41,797 nucleotides of DNA from Candidatus Pacearchaeota archaeon (lineage in GTDB: Archaea; Nanobdellota; Nanobdellia; Pacearchaeales; GW2011-AR1), in NCBI GenBank assembly GCA_018304055.1, contig JAGVWY010000001.1, forward strand, positions 1 through 41,797, given 5' to 3'. Shown in pieces: positions 8,887-38,438 of the stretch. The notes beneath the pieces are model-generated. The model made no database searches. It was not told the origin of the DNA and worked only from the letters and a program-made list of their open reading frames with translations. The first letter of the stretch is position 1. Each line of letters starts with the position of its first letter. Position numbers and translations under genes: made by a program.

Positions 8887-9594
8887 ATGCAATTAAGCAA
8901 AGGCGAAGAAAAGGCATATGAAGTTTTGAGAAAAAATAAAATTCAGGTGTTCAGACTGAGAGAATTAGCTTTGCTTCTGGAAATTGATAAAACTAAAACA
9001 TATAATCTGATTAAGGCCTTGAAAAAGAAAAAGGTGATTGATGTGCTTTCTTCCGGAACGTATTCTTTGAATGATGCAGACGATTTCGTCGTTGGCGCTT
9101 ATTTTAACTGGCCGTCTTACGTAAGTTTTCTTTCTGCATTGAACTACTATGGATTAAGCGACAATCTGCCTAAAAAGATAACCTATGTTTCTGTAAAATA
9201 TAAAAGACATAAAAGGTTTGTGTATGTTTGCTTATCCAAGAACAGATTTTTTGGATATTTTAAAATTGGAGATTTTATTATTGCTGAAAAAGAAAAAGCC
9301 TTTGTTGACTCTTTGCTGTTTCCTAAATATAGCGGCGGCGTAAGAGAAATTTCAAGATTATTACTGGAAAATATTAATGAGCTTGATATTAAGAAGTTAA
9401 TAAATTATGCTTTAAGAGTTAATAGTAAGATGGTATTAAGAAGATTAGGATTTATCTTAGATGAAAAATTGAATAAAAAAGATAAAAATACTCTGCTGAA
9501 AAAAATTGGCAAAGGAGTTGGGTTTCTTGATCCAATGAATAAAACAAGAAAGGATTTAAATAAAGAATGGCGGCTTTATACAAATTTAAAATGA
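8887..9594 (+). CDS. abiEi: AbiEi-like antitoxin/transcriptional regulator (type IV TA)
   Basis: N-terminal wHTH (FRLRELALLLEIDKTKTYNLIKALKKKKVI). Size and position directly upstream of an AbiEii nucleotidyltransferase, with an ATGA stop/start overlap at 9591-9594. Confidence 0.7.
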   Translation: MQLSKGEEKAYEVLRKNKIQVFRLRELALLLEIDKTKTYNLIKALKKKKVIDVLSSGTYSLNDADDFVVGAYFNWPSYVSFLSALNYYGLSDNLPKKITYVSVKYKRHKRFVYVCLSKNRFFGYFKIGDFIIAEKEKAFVDSLLFPKYSGGVREISRLLLENINELDIKKLINYALRVNSKMVLRRLGFILDEKLNKKDKNTLLKKIGKGVGFLDPMNKTRKDLNKEWRLYTNLK

Positions 9595-10334
9595 TATCAA
9601 GAGAAGAACTTGTATTGCTTAAACAAAAGAGGAAGATAAGTTTGTATTATTTAGAGAAGGAATATTTGCAGTATATTTTTCTTAATGCTGTGTCCAAACA
9701 TGGAGATTCTACCGTCTTTAAAGGCGGAACCTGTTTAAGACTGTGTTATGGTTTAGAAAGAGCTTCAGAAGATTTGGACTTTACCATTTATCTAAATGTC
9801 AATAAATTAAAAGAGCTCATAAATGGTTGTTTGAAGTCTTTTGATTTATTGGGAATTGAACACTTTGATATGATTGAGAAAGTATTTGAAGGAAATATAA
9901 GATTTGAAATAAAATTTAAGGGGCCTTTGTACAATGGAAATCTTAATTCTGCCAACAATTTGAAGATTGATTTTAATAAGAACAAAGTTTTTTTTAAGAA
10001 AGCGTCAGTAATAAATCGGGTTTTTTCAGACGTTCCTTTGTTTGTTATTGTCGCATTAGCTGAAAAAGAAATTCTTGCTGAGAAAATCAGAGCGATTGCA
10101 AATAGGAATCAGGCAAGAGATTTATATGATTTGTGGATGTTACTAGGAAAAAAAGTAGAGATAGATAAGAATCTAATTTATAAAAAATTAAAAGAAGAAA
10201 AGGTTGATTTGAATAGGATAACTTTGCTATCAAAAGAATCATATGAAACGGATTTGAGGAACTTAGTAGATTATATTCCAGATTATGAACAAATAAAGAA
10301 AGAAATAATTGAATTTATTGAGGAGTTAAAATGA
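9591..10334 (+). CDS. abiEii: AbiEii/DUF1814 nucleotidyltransferase toxin
   Basis: Hallmark motif FKGGTCLRLCYGLERASEDLDF, later AEKIRAIANRNQARDLYDL. Start taken at ATG 9591 (MISREEL), overlapping the abiEi stop. Confidence 0.85.
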   Translation: MISREELVLLKQKRKISLYYLEKEYLQYIFLNAVSKHGDSTVFKGGTCLRLCYGLERASEDLDFTIYLNVNKLKELINGCLKSFDLLGIEHFDMIEKVFEGNIRFEIKFKGPLYNGNLNSANNLKIDFNKNKVFFKKASVINRVFSDVPLFVIVALAEKEILAEKIRAIANRNQARDLYDLWMLLGKKVEIDKNLIYKKLKEEKVDLNRITLLSKESYETDLRNLVDYIPDYEQIKKEIIEFIEELK

Positions 10335-11734: not shown

Positions 11735-11950
11735 ATGCAACCTACTTTATTCATTTTAGGATTTATTATAGATGCTTTAGGCAAAGTTCTGTTAGGTATA
11801 AGTGTTATTTTAGTTCATGGCATTGTCTACAAAGAACGGAAAATTGATATAAAGGTTTTAAGAGAAATGAAAATAGAAAAAAAATTAAGTCTTTTAGGAA
11901 TTATACTTATTATTATTGGTTCTGGAATTCAGGTTTGGTTTATGATTTAA
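11735..11950 (+). CDS. small membrane protein (2 TM)
   Basis: Two hydrophobic helices. Its 3' end overlaps the convergent methyltransferase gene by 57 nt, which lowers confidence. Confidence 0.4.
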   Translation: MQPTLFILGFIIDALGKVLLGISVILVHGIVYKERKIDIKVLREMKIEKKLSLLGIILIIIGSGIQVWFMI

Positions 11951-12595
11951 CTTTCCAAATAATACATAATATTCATCCTTATTTTTTAGACTCTTATTCG
12001 TGGATAGTTTAATTATTTTAAAATCTTTGAATTCTTTCTCTAGAATATTTTTATTAAAAAGATAATGGATAACTCCCTTTTCCCTTCCTCCTAGAGGTAC
12101 ATATGTTCTTGAATCAATAAATGTGTAATCTTTTTGTAGACTTTTTGTTATACCTTTAACAACTGTTAAATAAATAAATCCGTTAGGTTTAAGAATCCTT
12201 TTTATTTCTGATATAGCTTTTCTAATGTCCTGGATAGTGCCATGATTCAAAGTTCTTATACACATTATTGCGTCAAAATAATTTTTTTGATAGGGTAATT
12301 TTCCATACATGGATCTTACTTTTAAACTAGCATTAACTCCTTCCTTCTTTAACCATAACTTCGTTTTATGTACTCCTTCACTTGATATATCCAGTCCGTA
12401 CATTTCAAATCCTTCTTTCGCTAAATAAACAATATTCCTTCCTGAACCACACCCTAAGTCTAAGATTCTTGATATGTTATTTAATTTGAAAAAATTAGCT
12501 ATTTGTGGTAAATTTCTTTGAGGTTTTTTAGTAAAATTGTCATTCACATAAACTTCATTCCATTGTTTTTTTACTTTTAACTCAAAATTTCTCAT
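11894..12595 (-). CDS. class I SAM-dependent methyltransferase
   Basis: Motif I ILDLGCGSGRN followed by the acidic YGLDIS. The ATG at 12595 lies 1 nt after the stop of the upstream aaRS-like gene (the track start at 12604 is a GTG). Confidence 0.85.
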   Translation of the reverse strand: MRNFELKVKKQWNEVYVNDNFTKKPQRNLPQIANFFKLNNISRILDLGCGSGRNIVYLAKEGFEMYGLDISSEGVHKTKLWLKKEGVNASLKVRSMYGKLPYQKNYFDAIMCIRTLNHGTIQDIRKAISEIKRILKPNGFIYLTVVKGITKSLQKDYTFIDSRTYVPLGGREKGVIHYLFNKNILEKEFKDFKIIKLSTNKSLKNKDEYYVLFGKLNHKPNLNSRTNNNKYNS

Positions 12596-12596
12596 A

Positions 12597-13760
12597 TTAA
12601 TCACTTTTGCTTTCGCTATTCAGCTGAAGATATTCCTCCTTCTTTTTGAATAAATTCATGAAGTAGTAAACTGAATAATGCCTGAATAATTTGTGAGGAT
12701 TATCAATCCAGGATGATACTTCTTCGTAAATTATGTCTAATCCTTTTTTATCAAAACTCTCTTTAAGGTAATCATAATCAACAAGATAAGAGGGGAGATA
12801 CCCATATGCATTTTGTTTTATAGAGAGAGATTTAGATAATTTAGCTCCAGACCAATCGAGAATTAATGGCGAGTATACTATAATAGGTAATTCATGAGCA
12901 TAGACATTCCCTAATAAAGATGCTGTTCGATAAAGAGCCTGTTCTTGATAGTAACCTGCATAATCACTTCCAGTAACCCTTAATATTTCATATTCAATTG
13001 AAGTGTCCTTATTTTTTTTATGATATAGGAGTGCTCGGATTAGATTTCTTAATGGAGTGTTATACTCTAATAAACGTGATTGTTTTTTAATATTAATCTT
13101 AAATTTACCATGAGTTGGACAAAGGCATTCTATGCTATTATTAAAATATTTATTATTTACTCCTTTTTTGTCTGTTAAACCACATTGTGGACATGACACT
13201 CTAATGACAAATTTATCAGAGGATCCGAAAACCCTGTTTAAGGAATCCCTATTTTTAATAAAAAGTTTGACTAACTCCAGAATTTCTTTTTGTTTATTAA
13301 ATTCTTCTTGATTCCTTATTTTATAAGTTATTCCGCTTATTTTTTCTAAAAAATTCAATAGCTCGATATATTTTTTTAATATACTACTGCTTATTGAGTT
13401 ATTACGAAGATTGATTTGATAAACTATATCTTTAATTTTTAATATTTCTGATGGAGCTGAATCTACTATCTCAAATAATATTTCAACATTAATTTGTTTA
13501 GAAAAATTTTTTATTTTGGAAGCTAATGAAAAAGCCGTCATGAAAGTTATTATAGTGCCTAAATGAGGGGATGAATTCGGTTGTGCTCCTATACTTATGA
13601 TTAAGTTCTCTTTTTTAATATTATTTAATAAATAGCTAATAAAATTATCATTAAAAAGATAAGATGCTCCTCCAAGAGGATAGTATACTTTATTATCGTG
13701 AGTAATTACTTTATCTAGCTCTATTTTTTCATGAAAGTTGTTAGTTAATGATAAATCCAT
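12597..13760 (-). CDS. class I aminoacyl-tRNA synthetase-like protein (LysRS-I-like catalytic core, no anticodon-binding domain)
   Basis: HIGH-type motif in GAQPNSSPHLGTI and KMSKS-type motif in SGAKLSKSLS. GSDYAG sits where class I enzymes have G.DH. A Zn-knuckle insert is present (CPQCG...CLCPTHG). Only 387 aa. Confidence 0.7.
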   Translation of the reverse strand: MDLSLTNNFHEKIELDKVITHDNKVYYPLGGASYLFNDNFISYLLNNIKKENLIISIGAQPNSSPHLGTIITFMTAFSLASKIKNFSKQINVEILFEIVDSAPSEILKIKDIVYQINLRNNSISSSILKKYIELLNFLEKISGITYKIRNQEEFNKQKEILELVKLFIKNRDSLNRVFGSSDKFVIRVSCPQCGLTDKKGVNNKYFNNSIECLCPTHGKFKINIKKQSRLLEYNTPLRNLIRALLYHKKNKDTSIEYEILRVTGSDYAGYYQEQALYRTASLLGNVYAHELPIIVYSPLILDWSGAKLSKSLSIKQNAYGYLPSYLVDYDYLKESFDKKGLDIIYEEVSSWIDNPHKLFRHYSVYYFMNLFKKKEEYLQLNSESKSD

Positions 13761-13785
13761 CTTAAACTAAAATTATTGATGAAAA

Positions 13786-14541
13786 CTATTTTATTATTCC
13801 GAACGAAGATCCGCATAGATCATCTCCGGGTTCACGGCCTTCGATACAAAGCACATGTTCTAGAGGGTTACCGCCTGTTACACCATAAAGATGATCATGA
13901 TTATATCTAGAAATATAAGACACATCGTCCACTACCATAATTTCGTCTTTTAAATCAAGTGTTCCAACCTCATAACCATCTTTAAAATTATGGGAAGCTT
14001 CTTCTAATTTTCTTGCTCCTTCTAATCCGAAACTAGCTATCACAAAACCATTTTTAGACAAAGGGATCTTATCTTTGGATACATATGTTTCTCTTGGAGC
14101 AAATCTAATTCTTCCATCCTCACTAAATCTTACGCCTTCTATTTCTTCTCCATTTTTAACTATTTTTTCTAATTTATTCACTTTATTTATCAGATTTATT
14201 TTATGCTGCCTATGCGCCTGACTAGATACATATTCTCCACTAAATATTGTTCCATTTGCTTCTTGATCTTGTAGAACATAGACTCCATTATATGTAGATA
14301 AATTTCTATTAAAAACCCATATCCTAACATGATCTTTAATAAACGTATAAGGAGGGTAAACAGAACGAATTAAAGAAGCAATTTCTTCTCCAGTTGGTAT
14401 TTTATATCCCTTTTCTAATATTCCTCTCCCTACTTCTCTATAAAAACCTCCTATCGAAGGGTATGCAAATATTATCTCTCCATCTTCATGTGGAATGATT
14501 AATCTTGCTTGATTGTTTGTTCCGGGATTCATTTGATTCAT
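13786..14541 (-). CDS. hypothetical protein (family Q, copy 1)
   Basis: Paralog of 37494..38438: DGEIIFAYP / DGEIIFGYP; GVRFSEDGRIRFAPRETY / GVRFSKDNKIRFAPRDSY; NGFVIASFGLEGARKLEEAS / DGFIIASFGIEGAKKLAEIS. Confidence 0.65.
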   Translation of the reverse strand: MNQMNPGTNNQARLIIPHEDGEIIFAYPSIGGFYREVGRGILEKGYKIPTGEEIASLIRSVYPPYTFIKDHVRIWVFNRNLSTYNGVYVLQDQEANGTIFSGEYVSSQAHRQHKINLINKVNKLEKIVKNGEEIEGVRFSEDGRIRFAPRETYVSKDKIPLSKNGFVIASFGLEGARKLEEASHNFKDGYEVGTLDLKDEIMVVDDVSYISRYNHDHLYGVTGGNPLEHVLCIEGREPGDDLCGSSFGIIK

Positions 14542-14645
14542 AACAACTAATTTGAATTATCTTTAATCGCATCTTTTACAAATATATCTTTAGTAGAAAA
14601 AAAATCAACCTAAAAGTTTATAATTAACTGATTCTATTATATTTA

Positions 14646-15437
14646 ATGTCATTACCTCTATCTACTATTGGTAGCAGTTCAACAAAAAATTCAATTATAG
14701 AAATTCTCTCTAGGGAATGGCCGTTGACAGCAAAAAAGATTTATGGAAAATTAAAAAGACAATACAAACTATCACTTACTTATCAAGCTACGCATAAAGC
14801 CCTAAAAGAATTAACTGAAAATAGCATTCTGGAAAAGAAAAAAGAAGGCTATGTAATTAATAAAGAATGGATTAAAAGCCTTGGAAGTTTTAGTGAAAAA
14901 TTGTTATCTGACTTAGAGGCTTTACACGCTAAAAGAGAAATAAAAACATTTCATAAAATTTCTTTTGAAAATCATAGAGAATTCATAAAATTTCATTTAG
15001 ATTTCATAGATAAGGTAATGAAAGAAGATAAAAAGCTCAATGTGGTTATCCATTGCAGACATGTACCATATCCTCATGTATTGACAAATGAAGAAATAAA
15101 AAAATTAAGATTAATGAGAAATATGAAATGTTTAATACTATCTAAAAAAGATACAATATTAGACAGATGGTGTGCAAAACAATGGAAAAAAATGGGTGTA
15201 AATGTGAAATTGGGAGCAGAAATCGGTGTAGACATGAAAATTATTTTAAATGACTATATTATGGATATTTATAATACAAAAGAAGTAATATCTATGTGGG
15301 ATAAAATACATTCAGTAAAAAGTGTTAATGATTTTGATGCAACTTCAATGTCTGAAAGCATACTCAATACAAAATTGAAGATTGTTGTAACAGTATATAA
15401 AGATAAAGAGCTTGCTTCGTTGTTAAAAAAAGCTTAG
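14646..15437 (+). CDS. winged-helix DNA-binding protein, putative regulator
   Basis: N-terminal wHTH-like IIEILSREWPLTAKKIYGKLKRQYKLSLTYQATHKALKELTENSILEKKKEGYVIN. Divergent from the family Q / aaRS-like / methyltransferase operon. Confidence 0.6.
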   Translation: MSLPLSTIGSSSTKNSIIEILSREWPLTAKKIYGKLKRQYKLSLTYQATHKALKELTENSILEKKKEGYVINKEWIKSLGSFSEKLLSDLEALHAKREIKTFHKISFENHREFIKFHLDFIDKVMKEDKKLNVVIHCRHVPYPHVLTNEEIKKLRLMRNMKCLILSKKDTILDRWCAKQWKKMGVNVKLGAEIGVDMKIILNDYIMDIYNTKEVISMWDKIHSVKSVNDFDATSMSESILNTKLKIVVTVYKDKELASLLKKA

Positions 15438-17776: not shown

Positions 17777-18886
17777 ATGGGTAATAATTTTTTAGAGAGA
17801 CATTCTGCAAAGATACAAGCTTCTTTGTCTATACTAGTGAAACTTGCACTTATAGCTTCTATAGCATATTTTTTATATTTTCATTCATGGAGAATTTTGT
17901 TTGTTAATCTTTTATTATTAGTTCTGGTTTTTCTTCCTTATTTATCCAGGAAAATAAACATAGAAATCCCAAGAGAAATAGAATTCATATTACTGATATT
18001 CGTTATTATTTCATTTTTTTTAGGCGATTTAAGAGGATTGGTTGTACAGGTATTTTTTGGCTTATCACTTGGATTTGTCGGATTCGCGTTAATAACCATC
18101 TTGTATAAAAACAGTAAATTAAAACCTAATTATCCTTTGATAATGTTTTTTTCTTTGTCTATTTCATTGGCATTAGGAGCGCTTTCAGAATTGGCTAAAT
18201 TTTATCTGAGATGGTATCTTTCTATACCCTTAGATATTTCAGATTATCAATTTGCAATGGAATCTTTGACTTTAGTTTTTATTGGAGCATTGCTCGCAAT
18301 TTCTGCTGGTTTTTTTTATGTGACTGGTAATAAAATAATTTTCCTGAATAAGTTAGTTGAAAGATTCAAGCATAGAAATCCTAATTTATTCATAGAAAAA
18401 ACTGATTCTCCAGACGAAATAGTAAAGTTAATTAAAAGGGGAGAGAGTGAAAAAATTGAGTTTAAATCAACGCTAAGAACAAATATCCATACTGGCCAGC
18501 ATGATAAAAATATGGAGCATACTATTCTTAAAACAATATCAGCATTTCTGAATTCAGAAGGAGGAACTTTATTGATAGGAGTTTCAGACAAGGGAGAGAT
18601 ACATGGAATTGAAAAAGACCAATTTCCCTCAAATGACAAGTTTAATTTGCAATTTACGAATTTAATCAAAGAATATATTGGCAATGAGAACCTTCCTTAT
18701 TTACATTTTGAATTAATCCTAGTAGAAGGAAGTTACATTATGAAAGTAGACTGCATGAAATGCAAAAAGCCGGTATTTTTAAGATTTAATAAGATAGAGG
18801 AATTTTATGTGAGGGTTGGGGCATCTACTGTTCAATTACAGGGAAGCAAGTTAGTTGATTACATAAATAACAATTTTGGGAAATAA
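17777..18886 (+). CDS. polytopic membrane protein fused to a C-terminal AlbA_2/Schlafen-type putative DNA-binding domain
   Basis: About 6 hydrophobic helices in the first 190 aa. These are followed by ESEKIEFKSTLRTN...LKTISAFLNSEGGTLLIGVSDKGEIHGI, the characteristic AlbA_2 (divergent AAA_4) core. Confidence 0.7.
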   Translation: MGNNFLERHSAKIQASLSILVKLALIASIAYFLYFHSWRILFVNLLLLVLVFLPYLSRKINIEIPREIEFILLIFVIISFFLGDLRGLVVQVFFGLSLGFVGFALITILYKNSKLKPNYPLIMFFSLSISLALGALSELAKFYLRWYLSIPLDISDYQFAMESLTLVFIGALLAISAGFFYVTGNKIIFLNKLVERFKHRNPNLFIEKTDSPDEIVKLIKRGESEKIEFKSTLRTNIHTGQHDKNMEHTILKTISAFLNSEGGTLLIGVSDKGEIHGIEKDQFPSNDKFNLQFTNLIKEYIGNENLPYLHFELILVEGSYIMKVDCMKCKKPVFLRFNKIEEFYVRVGASTVQLQGSKLVDYINNNFGK

Positions 18887-18934: not shown

Positions 18935-20239
18935 ATGAAATCAGAGAGTTTACTCTCAAGAAGAGAATTTCTTTATAGAACAGGAAATAGTTTGTCTTTT
19001 TCTTTTTTTTACCCTTGTATAAAACCATTCTCATATAACCCAAGAAATGCAGAAGAATGGTTAGAAAGATGGATGAAAGAAAATGAATTTGATAATTTAG
19101 AAAGGAGGATATCAGAATCTGTTGAGTTAATGGAGGATAATAGTTATAGAATAAGAAACAAAGCTTTTTTAGATGTTTTAGCTCCTCTAAAAGAATTATC
19201 AAGATTTTATAATCCTCTGCCTGTAGAAGTTATGGAAACGTTAAATAAATTATCTTCTGAAACAAAAAATTTTTCTATTGAACAACAAATGAGGATAAGA
19301 GAGATGCATAAAGTTTTAGAAGAGATTCAAAGGAATTCTTCAACAAACTATCCTCCTGTCTCAAATAATGCTTATAGTATTATTTTAGATTTAAATGAAA
19401 ATTTTTGCACAAATTTCAGAGTAGACAACGAAATAGAGCATAGATTATGGTTAGAAACTATAAATCTAAATGGAAGAAATAGTCTAACATCACTAATAAA
19501 AGAGATATGCGATAAAACCAGCACTAAAATAATTACAGATAGTTATAATAGAGATTGTTTCCATATTGTAGAAAGAGGAAATGAAAGATTAATCGCATAT
19601 GATAAAATTCTTGTTACTGTTAATGATAACAAAGTTGAGCTTTTACTTGACCCTCATTGTGGAAGATTTCTAAGCGTTGAGAAAGCTTACAAAAACTCTC
19701 AAGTAAATGAAGACATTGAAATTTTTATTCCTGAACTTCTTCCTGATTGGGAGTTTATTGGCTCAGAGATTTATAAAAAATGTCCAGATTCTAAAACAGC
19801 TGTATACAGGGATAGAGATATTGAAACGCATCAGATAAAAATTGAATTGATTACGGCAGTTTATCCCTTTACATCCAGACTTGTTTTTGATAATGAACAA
19901 GATTTAGGATTTCAAAAAAGATTAACAGCGCATAAAGAAGAAAATGATGATGGAACTTATAGTGTTGAAATAAGTTCAACCCCCTTTCCAGAATCATTTT
20001 GGGAAATAAGAAGAAATAGAGAATTTATGTATACGAGAGCAGCAGCTGATGCCTCTAGTTTTAGATTCTATGACAAAAAATCAAGAAAATTAAAAAGTGA
20101 TAGGATAAAAACAACTATTGTAAGAAGAGATATTAACTGGTTAATAGAATGTGAGGATGAACCAGAATATGTTGAAGTTAAAACTTATGATGATATAATA
20201 AGATGTGAACTCTTTTTAGACAGAAGAGAAATATTTTAA
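18935..20239 (+). CDS. hypothetical protein
   Basis: Track ORF, 434 aa, 48 nt after the previous gene. N-terminal LSRREFLY resembles a twin-arginine motif, but the h-region is weak. Confidence 0.6.
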   Translation: MKSESLLSRREFLYRTGNSLSFSFFYPCIKPFSYNPRNAEEWLERWMKENEFDNLERRISESVELMEDNSYRIRNKAFLDVLAPLKELSRFYNPLPVEVMETLNKLSSETKNFSIEQQMRIREMHKVLEEIQRNSSTNYPPVSNNAYSIILDLNENFCTNFRVDNEIEHRLWLETINLNGRNSLTSLIKEICDKTSTKIITDSYNRDCFHIVERGNERLIAYDKILVTVNDNKVELLLDPHCGRFLSVEKAYKNSQVNEDIEIFIPELLPDWEFIGSEIYKKCPDSKTAVYRDRDIETHQIKIELITAVYPFTSRLVFDNEQDLGFQKRLTAHKEENDDGTYSVEISSTPFPESFWEIRRNREFMYTRAAADASSFRFYDKKSRKLKSDRIKTTIVRRDINWLIECEDEPEYVEVKTYDDIIRCELFLDRREIF

Positions 20240-29745: not shown

Positions 29746-29799
29746 ATAATACCAACTAATTTATAAACTAGAATTTTCTTTACAATTTATTCATCAAAT

Positions 29800-29874
29800 G
29801 GCTCCATAGCTCAGCCTGGTTAGAGCACCGGCCTTTTAAGCCGGGTGTCGGGGGTTCAAATCCCCCTGGGGCCA
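29800..29874 (+). tRNA. tRNA-Lys (anticodon UUU), no encoded CCA
   Basis: Hand fold: GGCTCCA TA GCTC AGCCTGGTTA GAGC A CCGGC CTTTTAA GCCGG GTGTC GGGGG TTCAAAT CCCCC TGGGGCC A. Confidence 0.95.
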
Positions 29875-29931
29875 TGTATTATTGAACGAAGTGAAATAAT
29901 AGATGTTCTTGAATGTATTTTAATTCACTTA

Positions 29932-30006: not shown

Positions 30007-30015
30007 TCACAAAAT

Positions 30016-30166
30016 TTTATATAGAGGACTTTGAATAATTAACATTTCCGAAGACTTCAATCTTCTCTGAAGTTGAAGTATTAGGAATTTTAATTCCTAA
30101 GGAAATCTACTCAAAGTCCTTCTTAGAGAATTTTTATTTCCTAGGTTTTTCAAAATTCTCTTAAGA
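30016..30166 (+). repeat. structured repeat element, copy A (long form)
   Basis: Shares with 35784..35884 the blocks ttttat(at)agaggactttga, atttccgaag, ggaaat, tcaaagtccttcttagaga and aggtttttcaaaa.tctct. Stems: aggactttga/tcaaagtcct (30025-34/30111-20), atttcc/ggaaat (30044-49/30101-06) and agagaatttt/aaaattctct (30125-34/30152-61). About 50 nt carrying two extra hairpins are inserted in the apical loop. Confidence 0.55.
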
Positions 30167-30314
30167 ATTTTTAGAAGTCATTAAACAAAATAAATGATTA
30201 TTGATATTCATAACTAAGTTTATAATAATAAAATAATTAATATTTTTATGGAAATAAAGAAAATTTTGCAAAATTAACAAAATTTTCAGTCTTTCCATTT
30301 TTCATAAATTCAAA

Positions 30315-35666: not shown

Positions 35667-35783
35667 TTTAATTCTTTAGAAATTTATTTCTATAAATTAA
35701 CTTCATAATACCCCTATTTAAATTTTTCTTTAGTGGAGTGTATATTAATATTTAATTTTTTAAAGAATTTTCATTCAATTTAT

Positions 35784-35884
35784 TTTATAGAGGACTTTGA
35801 TTAACCCTTATTTCCGAAGGAAATCGCGTCAAAGTCCTTCTTAGAGAGTTTTGAATTTTGAGGTTTTTCAAAACTCTCTATATA
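35784..35884 (+). repeat. structured repeat element, copy B (short form)
   Basis: Stems: aggactttga/tcaaagtcct (35791-800/35829-38), atttcc/ggaaat around a gaa loop, and tagagagttttgaa/ttcaaaactctcta (35842-55/35867-80, 14 bp perfect). Same orientation as copy A. Lies 120-215 nt upstream of the groES ATG. Confidence 0.55.
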
Positions 35885-36009
35885 TTATTTCTTAGCTTGT
35901 TTCCACAAAATGTTATATTATCAGTAACTTTTAGACACTGATTTTTTTAGTCTTTCTTTTACTCACAAAATTCCGAAAGTTCTAAATATAAATACTCATA
36001 TGAGTATTT

Positions 36010-37493: not shown

Positions 37494-38438
37494 ATGGAAA
37501 AAAAATCAAAACTAAGAATAGAGAAAGTAGAGAAAATTTGGATACCAGATGTAAAAATATATTTACCTAGTAAAGATGGAGAAATAATCTTTGGATATCC
37601 CCCTCCAAATAAATATGAACTAGATAGGAAAAATTTTAGATTACCATCAGCAGATCAGGTTGTAGACTTAATTTATGCGGCATTTTTTAGTAAAAGAAAT
37701 GAACCAAATCTAGATTTGATTTTAGATCCCTGTTTTTTTAGAATTTATAATGTAAATTTATGGACTAATGAAGGAATTTATGTAGAGGAATGTTCAAGTG
37801 ATTGGTCTGAAAGATATCCAAGTTTTAACTTAGAAGTTGGAGAATTAGAAGAGAAATTAACTGGAGGAACAGTACTTTCAAATGGAGTAAGATTTAGTAA
37901 AGATAACAAAATAAGATTTGCTCCCAGAGATAGTTACACTCTAGATGTTCCAGCAAAATATGCTCCTTCTAAGAATTTTCCTAAATTTTCGGAAAAGGAA
38001 TTAATAGAGGTTTTGCAGGCGGCGAACAATCTAGAATCAATAGCTAGAACGCTCAACCCAAAAGATTATGTTAAGGTTAGAGAAGAAGAATTAAAATTTT
38101 TTAAAACTGATCTTGAAAATGATGGATTTATTATTGCAAGTTTTGGTATAGAAGGAGCCAAAAAATTGGCTGAAATCTCAAAACTAAAAGTATTTGGAAC
38201 TCATCATCCCAGATGTTTTCCAATATCTTGGGAGTCAGAATCAGATGAATATATAAAGGAGGTGGTTAATGATAGTAATTATTTAAGATTACAACACCCT
38301 TTCGCCGGTTATGGATTTGAACTTATAGGTAGTAGCTATCTTTATTCTGGATGGCGTAAAATATGGAAAAACCATCGAGAAAGAATGGGTAATGATTTAG
38401 TTGAGGGATGTAAAACTTTTTATGTTTTAAAAGAATAA
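37494..38438 (+). CDS. hypothetical protein (family Q, copy 2)
   Basis: Paralog of 13786..14541 (shared blocks listed there), with an extra ~50-aa insert. Divergent from the TrmB gene and upstream of serS. Confidence 0.65.
   Translation: MEKKSKLRIEKVEKIWIPDVKIYLPSKDGEIIFGYPPPNKYELDRKNFRLPSADQVVDLIYAAFFSKRNEPNLDLILDPCFFRIYNVNLWTNEGIYVEECSSDWSERYPSFNLEVGELEEKLTGGTVLSNGVRFSKDNKIRFAPRDSYTLDVPAKYAPSKNFPKFSEKELIEVLQAANNLESIARTLNPKDYVKVREEELKFFKTDLENDGFIIASFGIEGAKKLAEISKLKVFGTHHPRCFPISWESESDEYIKEVVNDSNYLRLQHPFAGYGFELIGSSYLYSGWRKIWKNHRERMGNDLVEGCKTFYVLKE

Follow-up and report, generated by a model that had tools for sequence, protein, structure and literature searches.

A LysRS-I-like catalytic core without an anticodon-binding domain in a Pacearchaeota archaeon points to an uncharacterised, mobile family with ASCH partners

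Results

Organization of the locus

The subject of this study is a gene on the minus strand of a 41,797-nt stretch of DNA from Candidatus Pacearchaeota archaeon (contig JAGVWY010000001.1, positions 1 to 41,797; the whole stretch, 41.8 kb, is referred to here as the window). The gene (12597..13760) encodes a protein of 387 aa resembling a truncated class I aminoacyl-tRNA synthetase (aaRS), and we found that this aaRS-like protein is a remote class I aaRS catalytic core which is closest to class I lysyl-tRNA synthetase (LysRS-I) and lacks an anticodon-binding domain. Comparison with its relatives places it in a sizeable family derived from aaRS, uncharacterised so far, whose defining partner is not encoded in the window.

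The aaRS-like gene lies between two other genes of the minus strand. The gene named Q (13786..14541, 251 aa) heads the operon, and 25 nt lie between its stop codon and the ATG at which the aaRS-like gene starts; an earlier note, made from the sequence alone, had rightly put the two genes side by side but counted 26 nt. At the other end, the stop codon TAA (12597-12599) is separated by one base from the ATG at 12595 of a class I S-adenosylmethionine (SAM)-dependent methyltransferase gene (11894..12604; Methyltransf_25, E 6e-21), just as that note had said, and an in-frame GTG at 12604 would be an alternative start giving an 8-nt overlap. Both junctions were read directly from the sequence. The methyltransferase is translationally coupled to the aaRS-like gene and belongs to the same operon. 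Upstream of Q lies an AT-rich intergenic region of 104 nt (14542..14645, read from the sequence) which is shared with a divergent gene, and a run of eight T (11877..11884, minus strand) lies 9 nt past the methyltransferase stop. Because of the junctions, the T8 run, and the divergent AT-rich region, Q, the aaRS-like gene, and the methyltransferase look like one transcript, with the T8 run as a plausible archaeal oligo-T terminator closing the three-gene unit and the 104-nt region as the likely promoter region for both Q and the divergent gene.

Motifs and fold of the aaRS-like protein

The class I motifs which the earlier note had read in this open reading frame (ORF) are exact at the level of translation and are invariant or nearly so among relatives. 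These are the HIGH-type motif SPHLGT (residues 64-69; 13554..13571), the GSDYAG motif (G264 and D266; 12954..12971), which matches the G-x-D-H/W motif ahead of KMSKS in class Ib synthetases, and the KMSKS-type loop KLSKS inside DWSGAKLSKS (12828..12842), all on the minus strand. The active-site set of PHxGT, GxD, and KLSKS is complete in the window protein. Throughout 30 close relatives, GAQPNSSPHxGT, NTPLRNLIR, RVTGSDYAGFYQE, and DWSGAKLSKS are invariant, as are C190, C193, C214, and H217. Even among 42 divergent relatives with only 23-32% identity, H66, G68, R187, C190, C193, C214, H217, P298, G305, and S309 are invariant, and K307, K310, D266, and D302 are nearly so. The insert CPQCG-x18-CLCPTHG (13107..13193, minus strand), taken as a Zn-knuckle in the earlier note, is conserved and is collinear with positions ~190-221 of the PF01921 (LysRS-I) model. 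Its putative metal ligands are, however, C190, C193, C214, and H217, since C212 is not conserved, and the knuckle would presumably bind a metal ion. Overall, the window protein carries the signature of a family of proteins of ~355-390 aa, consisting of QPNSxPHxGT, CxxC...CxxH, G-x-D-[YW], and DWSGAKLSKS.

Searches of Pfam, NCBIfam, and PDB sequences with the single aaRS-like protein gave nothing usable, with no match to PF01921, and a profile built from the alignment of close relatives retrieved only noise from PDB sequences. The AlphaFold (AF2) model of the protein (pLDDT 81, pTM 0.83) was more informative. Its best PDB match in Foldseek was the LysRS-I of P. horikoshii (1irx; E 7.9e-11, TMq 0.56), followed by BshC (4wbd; E 2.7e-7, TMq 0.39), GluRS, MetRS, and CysRS, and its best viral structural match was a protein of ~511 aa (E 3e-11). 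Matches to PF01921 were found in 15 of the 30 relatives; these are collinear with the model (for example, residues 33-217 of one relative against model positions 20-221 of 360), and all of them stay below the gathering score of 27 bits, the best reaching 26.6 bits. No match to PF00749, the GluRS catalytic domain, was found for the window protein or the 30 relatives. With a profile of the divergent clade, the HIGH block aligned to PSGYVHVGN of 1irx and PTGYLHIGG of GluRS, the G-x-D block to RGEDH of GluRS 2cfo, and DWSGAKLSKS to the GluRS KMSKS loop GQKLSKR, so that both the HIGH and the KMSKS assignments of the earlier note fit the true motifs of LysRS-I and GluRS. GluRS chains were matched weakly by the profile near the KMSKS loop (E 1.6e-3). 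The aaRS-like gene also has a nearly full-length match to the phage family phrog_35625, labelled 'tRNA synthetase' (E 2.5e-10).

Only 76 residues, forming three helices in the AlphaFold model, follow KLSKS, and there is therefore no room for an anticodon-binding domain. The proposal that this ORF of 387 aa is a LysRS-I-like core without the C-terminal anticodon-binding domain is thus borne out by the model and by the sub-threshold PF01921 matches. The family is nonetheless distinct from canonical LysRS-I, and the window protein falls outside the curated PF01921.

Distribution of the family

A search of a database clustered at 90% identity retrieved 380 homologs, with E values down to 1e-195, and the family forms ~357 clusters at 50% identity. 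Full-length members are 45-52% identical to the window protein, uniformly across taxa, and occur in Woesearchaeota, Nanoarchaeia, WWE3, Saccharibacteria, Peribacteria, Clostridia, Bacilli, Mollicutes, and Muribaculaceae (Bacteroidales); a Halobacteriales genome contains only a fragment of the gene. The closest full-length relative (P0001) is 80% identical and has the same N- and C-terminal extensions as the window protein, and therefore purifying selection appears to act in that sub-lineage. Copies of the gene are carried by plasmids of Macrococcus, Pantoea, and Prauserella, and by the temperate Streptomyces phages Picard and Mojorita, where the gene lies between the lysis cassette and the integrase. 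In Picard, the gp28-gp29 pair (L155, 6902-8373) consists of a 'tRNA synthetase' gene overlapping an ASCH gene labelled 'RNA binding protein', and it is located in an accessory, moron-like region. The close clade was not found in IMG/VR or phage records, and the Streptomyces phages carry the divergent clade only.

At several bacterial loci (L054, L057-L066) the gene is present in fragments. They could be pseudogenes, but an alternative genetic code in Mollicutes-like metagenome-assembled genomes (MAGs) could also make intact genes look broken. Homologs were also found in Basidiomycota (P0126, P0127, P0129, P0139, P0151, and P0209), where they are tandem-duplicated or fused to ASCH. The tandem duplications in fungi suggest that the enzyme is dimeric and that the family reached fungi either long ago or by horizontal transfer. 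In the second copy of P0126, the HIGH histidine is lost and DWSGARLSKS is kept.

Members of the family are annotated as 'hypothetical protein' or, in phages, as 'tRNA synthetase'. PADLOC gave no defence-system match for the aaRS-like protein, and a literature search on this family and on ASCH together with LysRS, aaRS, or PUA found nothing relevant. This uncharacterised family is accessory and horizontally spread, and its carriage by plasmids and phages, its pseudogenes, and its patchy taxonomy argue against a housekeeping LysRS.

ASCH proteins as conserved partners

To describe the neighbourhoods, flanking ORFs were clustered for about 150 loci (62 from genomes, 80 from metagenomes, and several from plasmids, phages, and contigs), which were dereplicated at 70% identity into 64 lineage groups. 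ORFs within 2.5 kb of the anchor were counted as near and those 4-8 kb away as far, the two classes covering similar amounts of DNA. Two ASCH (PUA-like) proteins are the conserved partners of the family. ASCHa, an ASCH-like protein of ~140 aa, is found in 48 of the 64 groups (43 near, 4 far) and is nearly obligate, while ASCHb, an ASCH protein (PF04266) of ~118 aa which usually comes next, is found in 25 of the 64 (21 near, none far). ASCHa typically starts before the aaRS-like gene ends, the overlap being 4-62 nt. Moreover, several bacteria and one fungus (P0209) have fusion proteins in which ASCHa follows the aaRS-like core (hidden Markov model (HMM) E 1e-53 and 6e-30), in the C-terminal position at which an anticodon-binding domain would sit.

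In PADLOC, ASCHa hits the candidate PDC-M11B, and it also matches phage families with no known function; nothing informative came from published work on PDC-M11, and a homology search with ASCHa returned close stand-alone relatives only. ASCHb matches the phage 'RNA-binding protein' family phrog_19935. In the two relatives that come next in similarity to the window protein (53-54% identity), the gene order is aaRS-like gene, ASCHa, ASCHb, as is usual in the family. Neither ASCHa nor ASCHb was detected in the window by a six-frame HMM search of the 41.8 kb, and no other lineage with adequate flanks lacks all of the recurrent partners. The conserved ASCH partners were invisible to the earlier note because they are absent from the window.

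Other recurrent neighbours of the family

Several enzyme families other than ASCH recur near the aaRS-like gene, among them AlkZ (12 near, 2 far), AdoMetDC (8 and 0), the methyltransferase family MT3 (8 and 1), AlaDH (7 and 0), MazG (4 and 0), and Nuc_deoxyrib_tr (3 and 0). NUDIX (3 near, 4 far) showed no enrichment and ABC-F (4 near, 2 far) no clear enrichment. Because the ORFs close to the anchor served to define these neighbour families, their enrichment is partly circular. Nucleotide enzymes that recur near the family include MazG, Nuc_deoxyrib_tr, NUDIX, dCMP/cytidine deaminase, LOG, and Ham1.

An extended operon, mostly on elements from gut metagenomes, comprises MT6, AlaDH/PNT, MT3, an AlkZ-like gene (often in two copies), the aaRS-like gene, and AdoMetDC (loci L080-L098, L090, L106, L112, L118, and L120). 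This set holds together through rearrangements, often with serine recombinases after it, and it looks like a mobile biosynthetic or modification cassette. Proteins with multiple transmembrane segments (multi-TM) are not enriched near the aaRS-like gene (0.25 near versus 0.32 far per 10 kb), and an export-linked metabolite was rejected as a general reading on this ground.

On the Pantoea plasmid, a class I methyltransferase overlaps the aaRS-like gene and is followed by LOG, a DMT transporter, and an ITPase. The mobilizable 16-kb Macrococcus plasmid pML2573_1 (L072) carries two ATP-grasp ligases ahead of the aaRS-like gene and ASCHa, and would make a compact model system open to testing. This gene set is adjoined by an MFS transporter and a helix-turn-helix (HTH) regulator, and the plasmid also encodes an AbiEii toxin.

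The methyltransferase and Q of the window

To the earlier note, the three genes from Q to the methyltransferase looked like one unit. They do form an operon on the minus strand, but the trio is not conserved, since none of the ~150 related loci has an ortholog of the window methyltransferase or a homolog of Q beside the aaRS-like gene. The window methyltransferase is related to the recurrent methyltransferases only at the superfamily level (18 bits to MT3) and is unrelated to the Pantoea enzyme (E 0.29). It is a generic class I SAM enzyme which is physically in the operon and is not a conserved partner. Because unrelated class I methyltransferases recur in the extended operon and in Pantoea, the pairing of an aaRS-like gene with a methyltransferase is not absurd.

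Q has 37 homologs, all in DPANN archaea, and a paralog in the window (37494..38438, plus strand). Elsewhere, its homologs adjoin ribosomal-protein genes, toxin-antitoxin (TA) modules, and, in two cases, reverse transcriptases (RVT_1; L070 and L071), and in no case an aaRS-like gene. The AF2 model of Q (pLDDT 85) has a single Foldseek match, a moderate one, to 5ioo, a nanoarchaeal C-type-lectin variable protein of a diversity-generating retroelement (DGR) (prob 0.99, E 2.5e-3, TM 0.44 and 0.51), and the C-terminal ~50 aa are hypervariable in the alignment of the Q family. Q is probably a variable protein of the DGR-target type that merely shares the transcript and is functionally unrelated to the aaRS-like gene. 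No pair of template and variable repeats (TR/VR) was found in the window and no RVT match among the window ORFs scanned, and an active DGR in the window was rejected on this basis; Q and its paralog may therefore be trans-targeted or relict DGR targets. We also considered Q as a cryptic PUA/ASCH substitute, which is excluded by its C-type-lectin fold and by the lack of a match to the ASCH HMMs.

Genomic context of the operon

The window is an AT-rich (~28% GC) segment of a DPANN-type archaeal chromosome that encodes a thermosome, class II ribonucleotide reductase, CCA-adding enzyme, SerRS, thioredoxin reductase, thymidylate kinase, an HhH-GPD glycosylase, tRNA-Ser, and tRNA-Lys. The divergent gene beyond the Q promoter side (14646..15437, plus strand, 263 aa) had been described as a winged helix-turn-helix gene; the divergent ORF is indeed there, but its winged-helix signal is weak and below threshold (HTH_45, E 0.019). 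Its product is a possible local regulator, and no homolog of it was found in the loci of the aaRS-like relatives. A very hydrophobic ORF of 71 aa (11735-11950, plus strand), which runs antisense over the 3' end of the methyltransferase gene, may encode a small membrane protein or be a chance ORF.

On one side of the locus is an AbiEii-type TA pair (8887-10334) and on the other a Schlafen/AlbA_2 gene (17777-18886), and the stretch between them looks accessory. The gene for the AbiEii nucleotidyltransferase toxin (9567-10334, plus strand; PF08843, E 9e-28) overlaps an ORF of 235 aa upstream of it (8887-9594, plus strand), which is probably the AbiEi-type antitoxin, so that a type IV TA pair would lie ~1.5 kb from the operon. 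The Schlafen/AlbA_2 gene is followed by an ORF of 434 aa without Pfam match (18935-20239), both on the plus strand, and the two could be a defence-type pair. A non-coding element of ~115-160 nt is present in two copies (30010-30172 and 35776-35890; repeat families D4 and D16) which are 77-80% identical, and the copy at 30010-30172 lies just downstream of tRNA-Lys(UUU) (29799-29875).

Discussion

We propose that the aaRS-like protein is an accessory, LysRS-I-like core that activates an amino acid for an acceptor of the nucleoside or nucleobase type presented by its ASCH partner, and we put the probability of this explanation as a whole at about 0.55. The enzyme would use ATP to form an aminoacyl-adenylate, and from its ancestry we guess that the amino acid is lysine or resembles lysine. 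The amino acid would then be transferred to an acceptor presented by ASCHa, most likely a nucleoside or nucleobase, free or within RNA or DNA, rather than to tRNA-Lys for translation. We favour a nucleoside-type acceptor because nucleic acids and modified nucleosides are the ligands of PUA-like ASCH domains and because the optional neighbours are nucleotide-processing enzymes. As for the window copy, the methyltransferase may act on the same substrate or product, and the aaRS-like protein may act alone or with a partner encoded elsewhere, or may be decaying.

A bolder version of this proposal, which we regard as possible but would not bet on, is that the family represents a third lineage of truncated class I aaRS paralogs beside GluQRS and MshC/BshC, in which the core and an ASCH subunit together aminoacylate a nucleotide or nucleic acid on its base or its ribose, and which would serve as a new modification or toxin in inter-genome conflict. 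The product would be, for example, an adduct of the N4-aminoacyl-cytosine type or a puromycin-like aminoacyl-nucleoside.

Several points weigh against a nucleoside-type acceptor and against extending it to the window copy. Both the amino-acid specificity and the acceptor are inferred. ASCH proteins are generic binders of nucleic acids and nucleotides, and the acceptor class is accordingly a guess. The enrichment of the neighbours is partly circular because of how their families were defined, and NUDIX and ABC-F have no positional enrichment. Furthermore, AlaDH/PNT, AdoMetDC, methyltransferases, and ATP-grasp ligases at some loci point to small-molecule chemistry of amino acids or polyamines. 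Finally, the window copy is without the partners of its family, so that what is deduced for the family may not hold for it, and it could be functionally decayed despite its intact motifs.

The main rival is a ligase resembling MshC/BshC that acts on a non-nucleotide metabolite, attaching an amino acid to an amine or hydroxyl (opine, polyamine, or peptide type), with the methyltransferase tailoring the product. We consider it rather doubtful as an account of the family, even though BshC is the second-best fold match, the Macrococcus plasmid pairs ATP-grasp ligases, the aaRS-like gene, and ASCHa with an MFS transporter and a regulator, the extended operon stays intact through rearrangements with AdoMetDC, AlaDH, and MT3 enriched near the gene, and the window copy itself is coupled to a SAM methyltransferase. 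The enzymes of the extended operon are present in only ~10-11 of the 64 lineages, many of them from related gut elements, and multi-TM transporters are not enriched near the gene. In addition, near-universal ASCH partners are untypical of metabolite pathways, and the minimal module is found in unrelated contexts, including the tiny genomes of DPANN archaea and CPR bacteria. The RNA-binding labels of the ASCH proteins (phrog_19935 and Picard gp29) lead instead to a tRNA modification as made by GluQRS, in which the core would aminoacylate a modified nucleoside in tRNA while the ASCH partner binds the RNA. This fits a class Ib core without anticodon domain, like that of YadB/GluQRS, and the position of ASCHa in place of the anticodon-binding domain in fusions. 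However, no linkage to tRNA genes or known modification enzymes was seen, and the patchy, mobile spread and the pseudogenes fit an accessory or conflict role better than a conserved tRNA modification. We judge this reading unlikely, and it is better regarded as one form of the best explanation than as a competitor of its own.

Two further explanations concern the window copy and its organism. The absence of ASCHa and ASCHb from the 41.8 kb, in the only well-flanked lineage without recurrent partners, would be expected of an orphan remnant, that is, a horizontally acquired gene which lost its ASCH partners, is non-functional or drifting, and came to be in an operon by an accident of insertion; the accessory genes flanking it and the fragmented copies elsewhere are in keeping with this. 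Yet the ORF is intact with all family-invariant residues retained, the 80%-identical relative P0001 shares its terminal extensions, the tight coupling to the methyltransferase looks evolved, and ASCH partners could be encoded outside the window, and we therefore think it quite improbable that the gene is a remnant. Least probable by far, and hardly credible to us, is that the protein is simply the organism's own LysRS with a short functional tRNA-recognition region. LysRS-I is its best fold match, a tRNA-Lys(UUU) gene lies 16 kb away, and no other LysRS was seen in the window, but the missing second LysRS means nothing because the window covers only 41.8 kb. The protein has no PF01921 match and only 76 residues after KLSKS, and its relatives reach at most 26.6 bits, as compared with 175.8 bits for a true shortened LysRS-I. 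Moreover, close members are found on Macrococcus and Pantoea plasmids and in gut Firmicutes, all of which use class II LysRS, and the family is also borne by phages.

The significance of an accessory LysRS-I-like core with an ASCH partner lies in part in what similar proteins have taught. Truncated aaRS paralogs gave new chemistry, including glutamyl-queuosine, mycothiol, EF-P lysylation, and cyclodipeptides. The present family is large and extends over three domains of life as well as phages and plasmids, with no Pfam model, no name, and no literature found. Its amino acid and acceptor, once found, could reveal a new modification of nucleotides or nucleic acids or a bioactive aminoacyl-nucleoside. 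For annotation, the 'tRNA synthetase' labels on phage and MAG genes of this family are misleading.

Comparison with known systems

The window protein resembles class I LysRS (LysK, PF01921, 1irx) in its Rossmann core, its HIGH- and KMSKS-type motifs, and its Cys-rich knuckle. Class I LysRS is ~520 aa in full length (507-523 aa for the chains of 1irx), whereas the window protein lacks the ~140 C-terminal residues that form the alpha-helical anticodon-binding part. Unlike class I LysRS, the family has invariant signatures of its own (QPNSxPHxGT, NTPLRNLxR, and DWSGAKLSKS), is accessory and mobile, pairs with ASCH proteins, and scores below the Pfam threshold. A shortened class I LysRS does exist in a virus, namely gp172 of Halogranum tailed virus 1 (HGTV-1), a protein of 375 aa that is of similar length, is labelled class I LysRS, and was a fold match of the window protein (TMq 0.45). 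HGTV-1 gp172 (L157, 43946-45073) is not a member of the family, since hhalign gave no significant match to the family profile and it is a bona fide PF01921 protein with 175.8 bits. The virus has 36 tRNA genes, and no ASCH gene adjoins gp172.

Three other kinds of aaRS-derived enzymes are instructive. GluQRS/YadB is a truncated class Ib paralog with a Zn site which attaches the activated amino acid not to the 3' end of tRNA but to a modified nucleoside, and, like the window family, it has no anticodon-binding domain. YadB derives from GluRS (PF00749), however, and the window family has no PF00749 match. YadB is also a chromosomal bacterial gene, whereas the window family is patchy and mobile, and YadB is not known to need an ASCH partner. 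MshC and BshC, in turn, have class I aaRS-like cores whose aminoacyl-adenylate acylates the amine of a small molecule in the making of mycothiol and bacillithiol. Unlike these, the window family has a different set of partners and no thiol-pathway genes nearby, and shows no sequence similarity to them. EpmA/PoxA is a class II LysRS paralog without anticodon domain that lysylates EF-P. Its logic is analogous, a LysRS core with an acceptor other than tRNA, but its class II fold is structurally unrelated, and no linkage to EF-P or aIF5A was seen for the window family.

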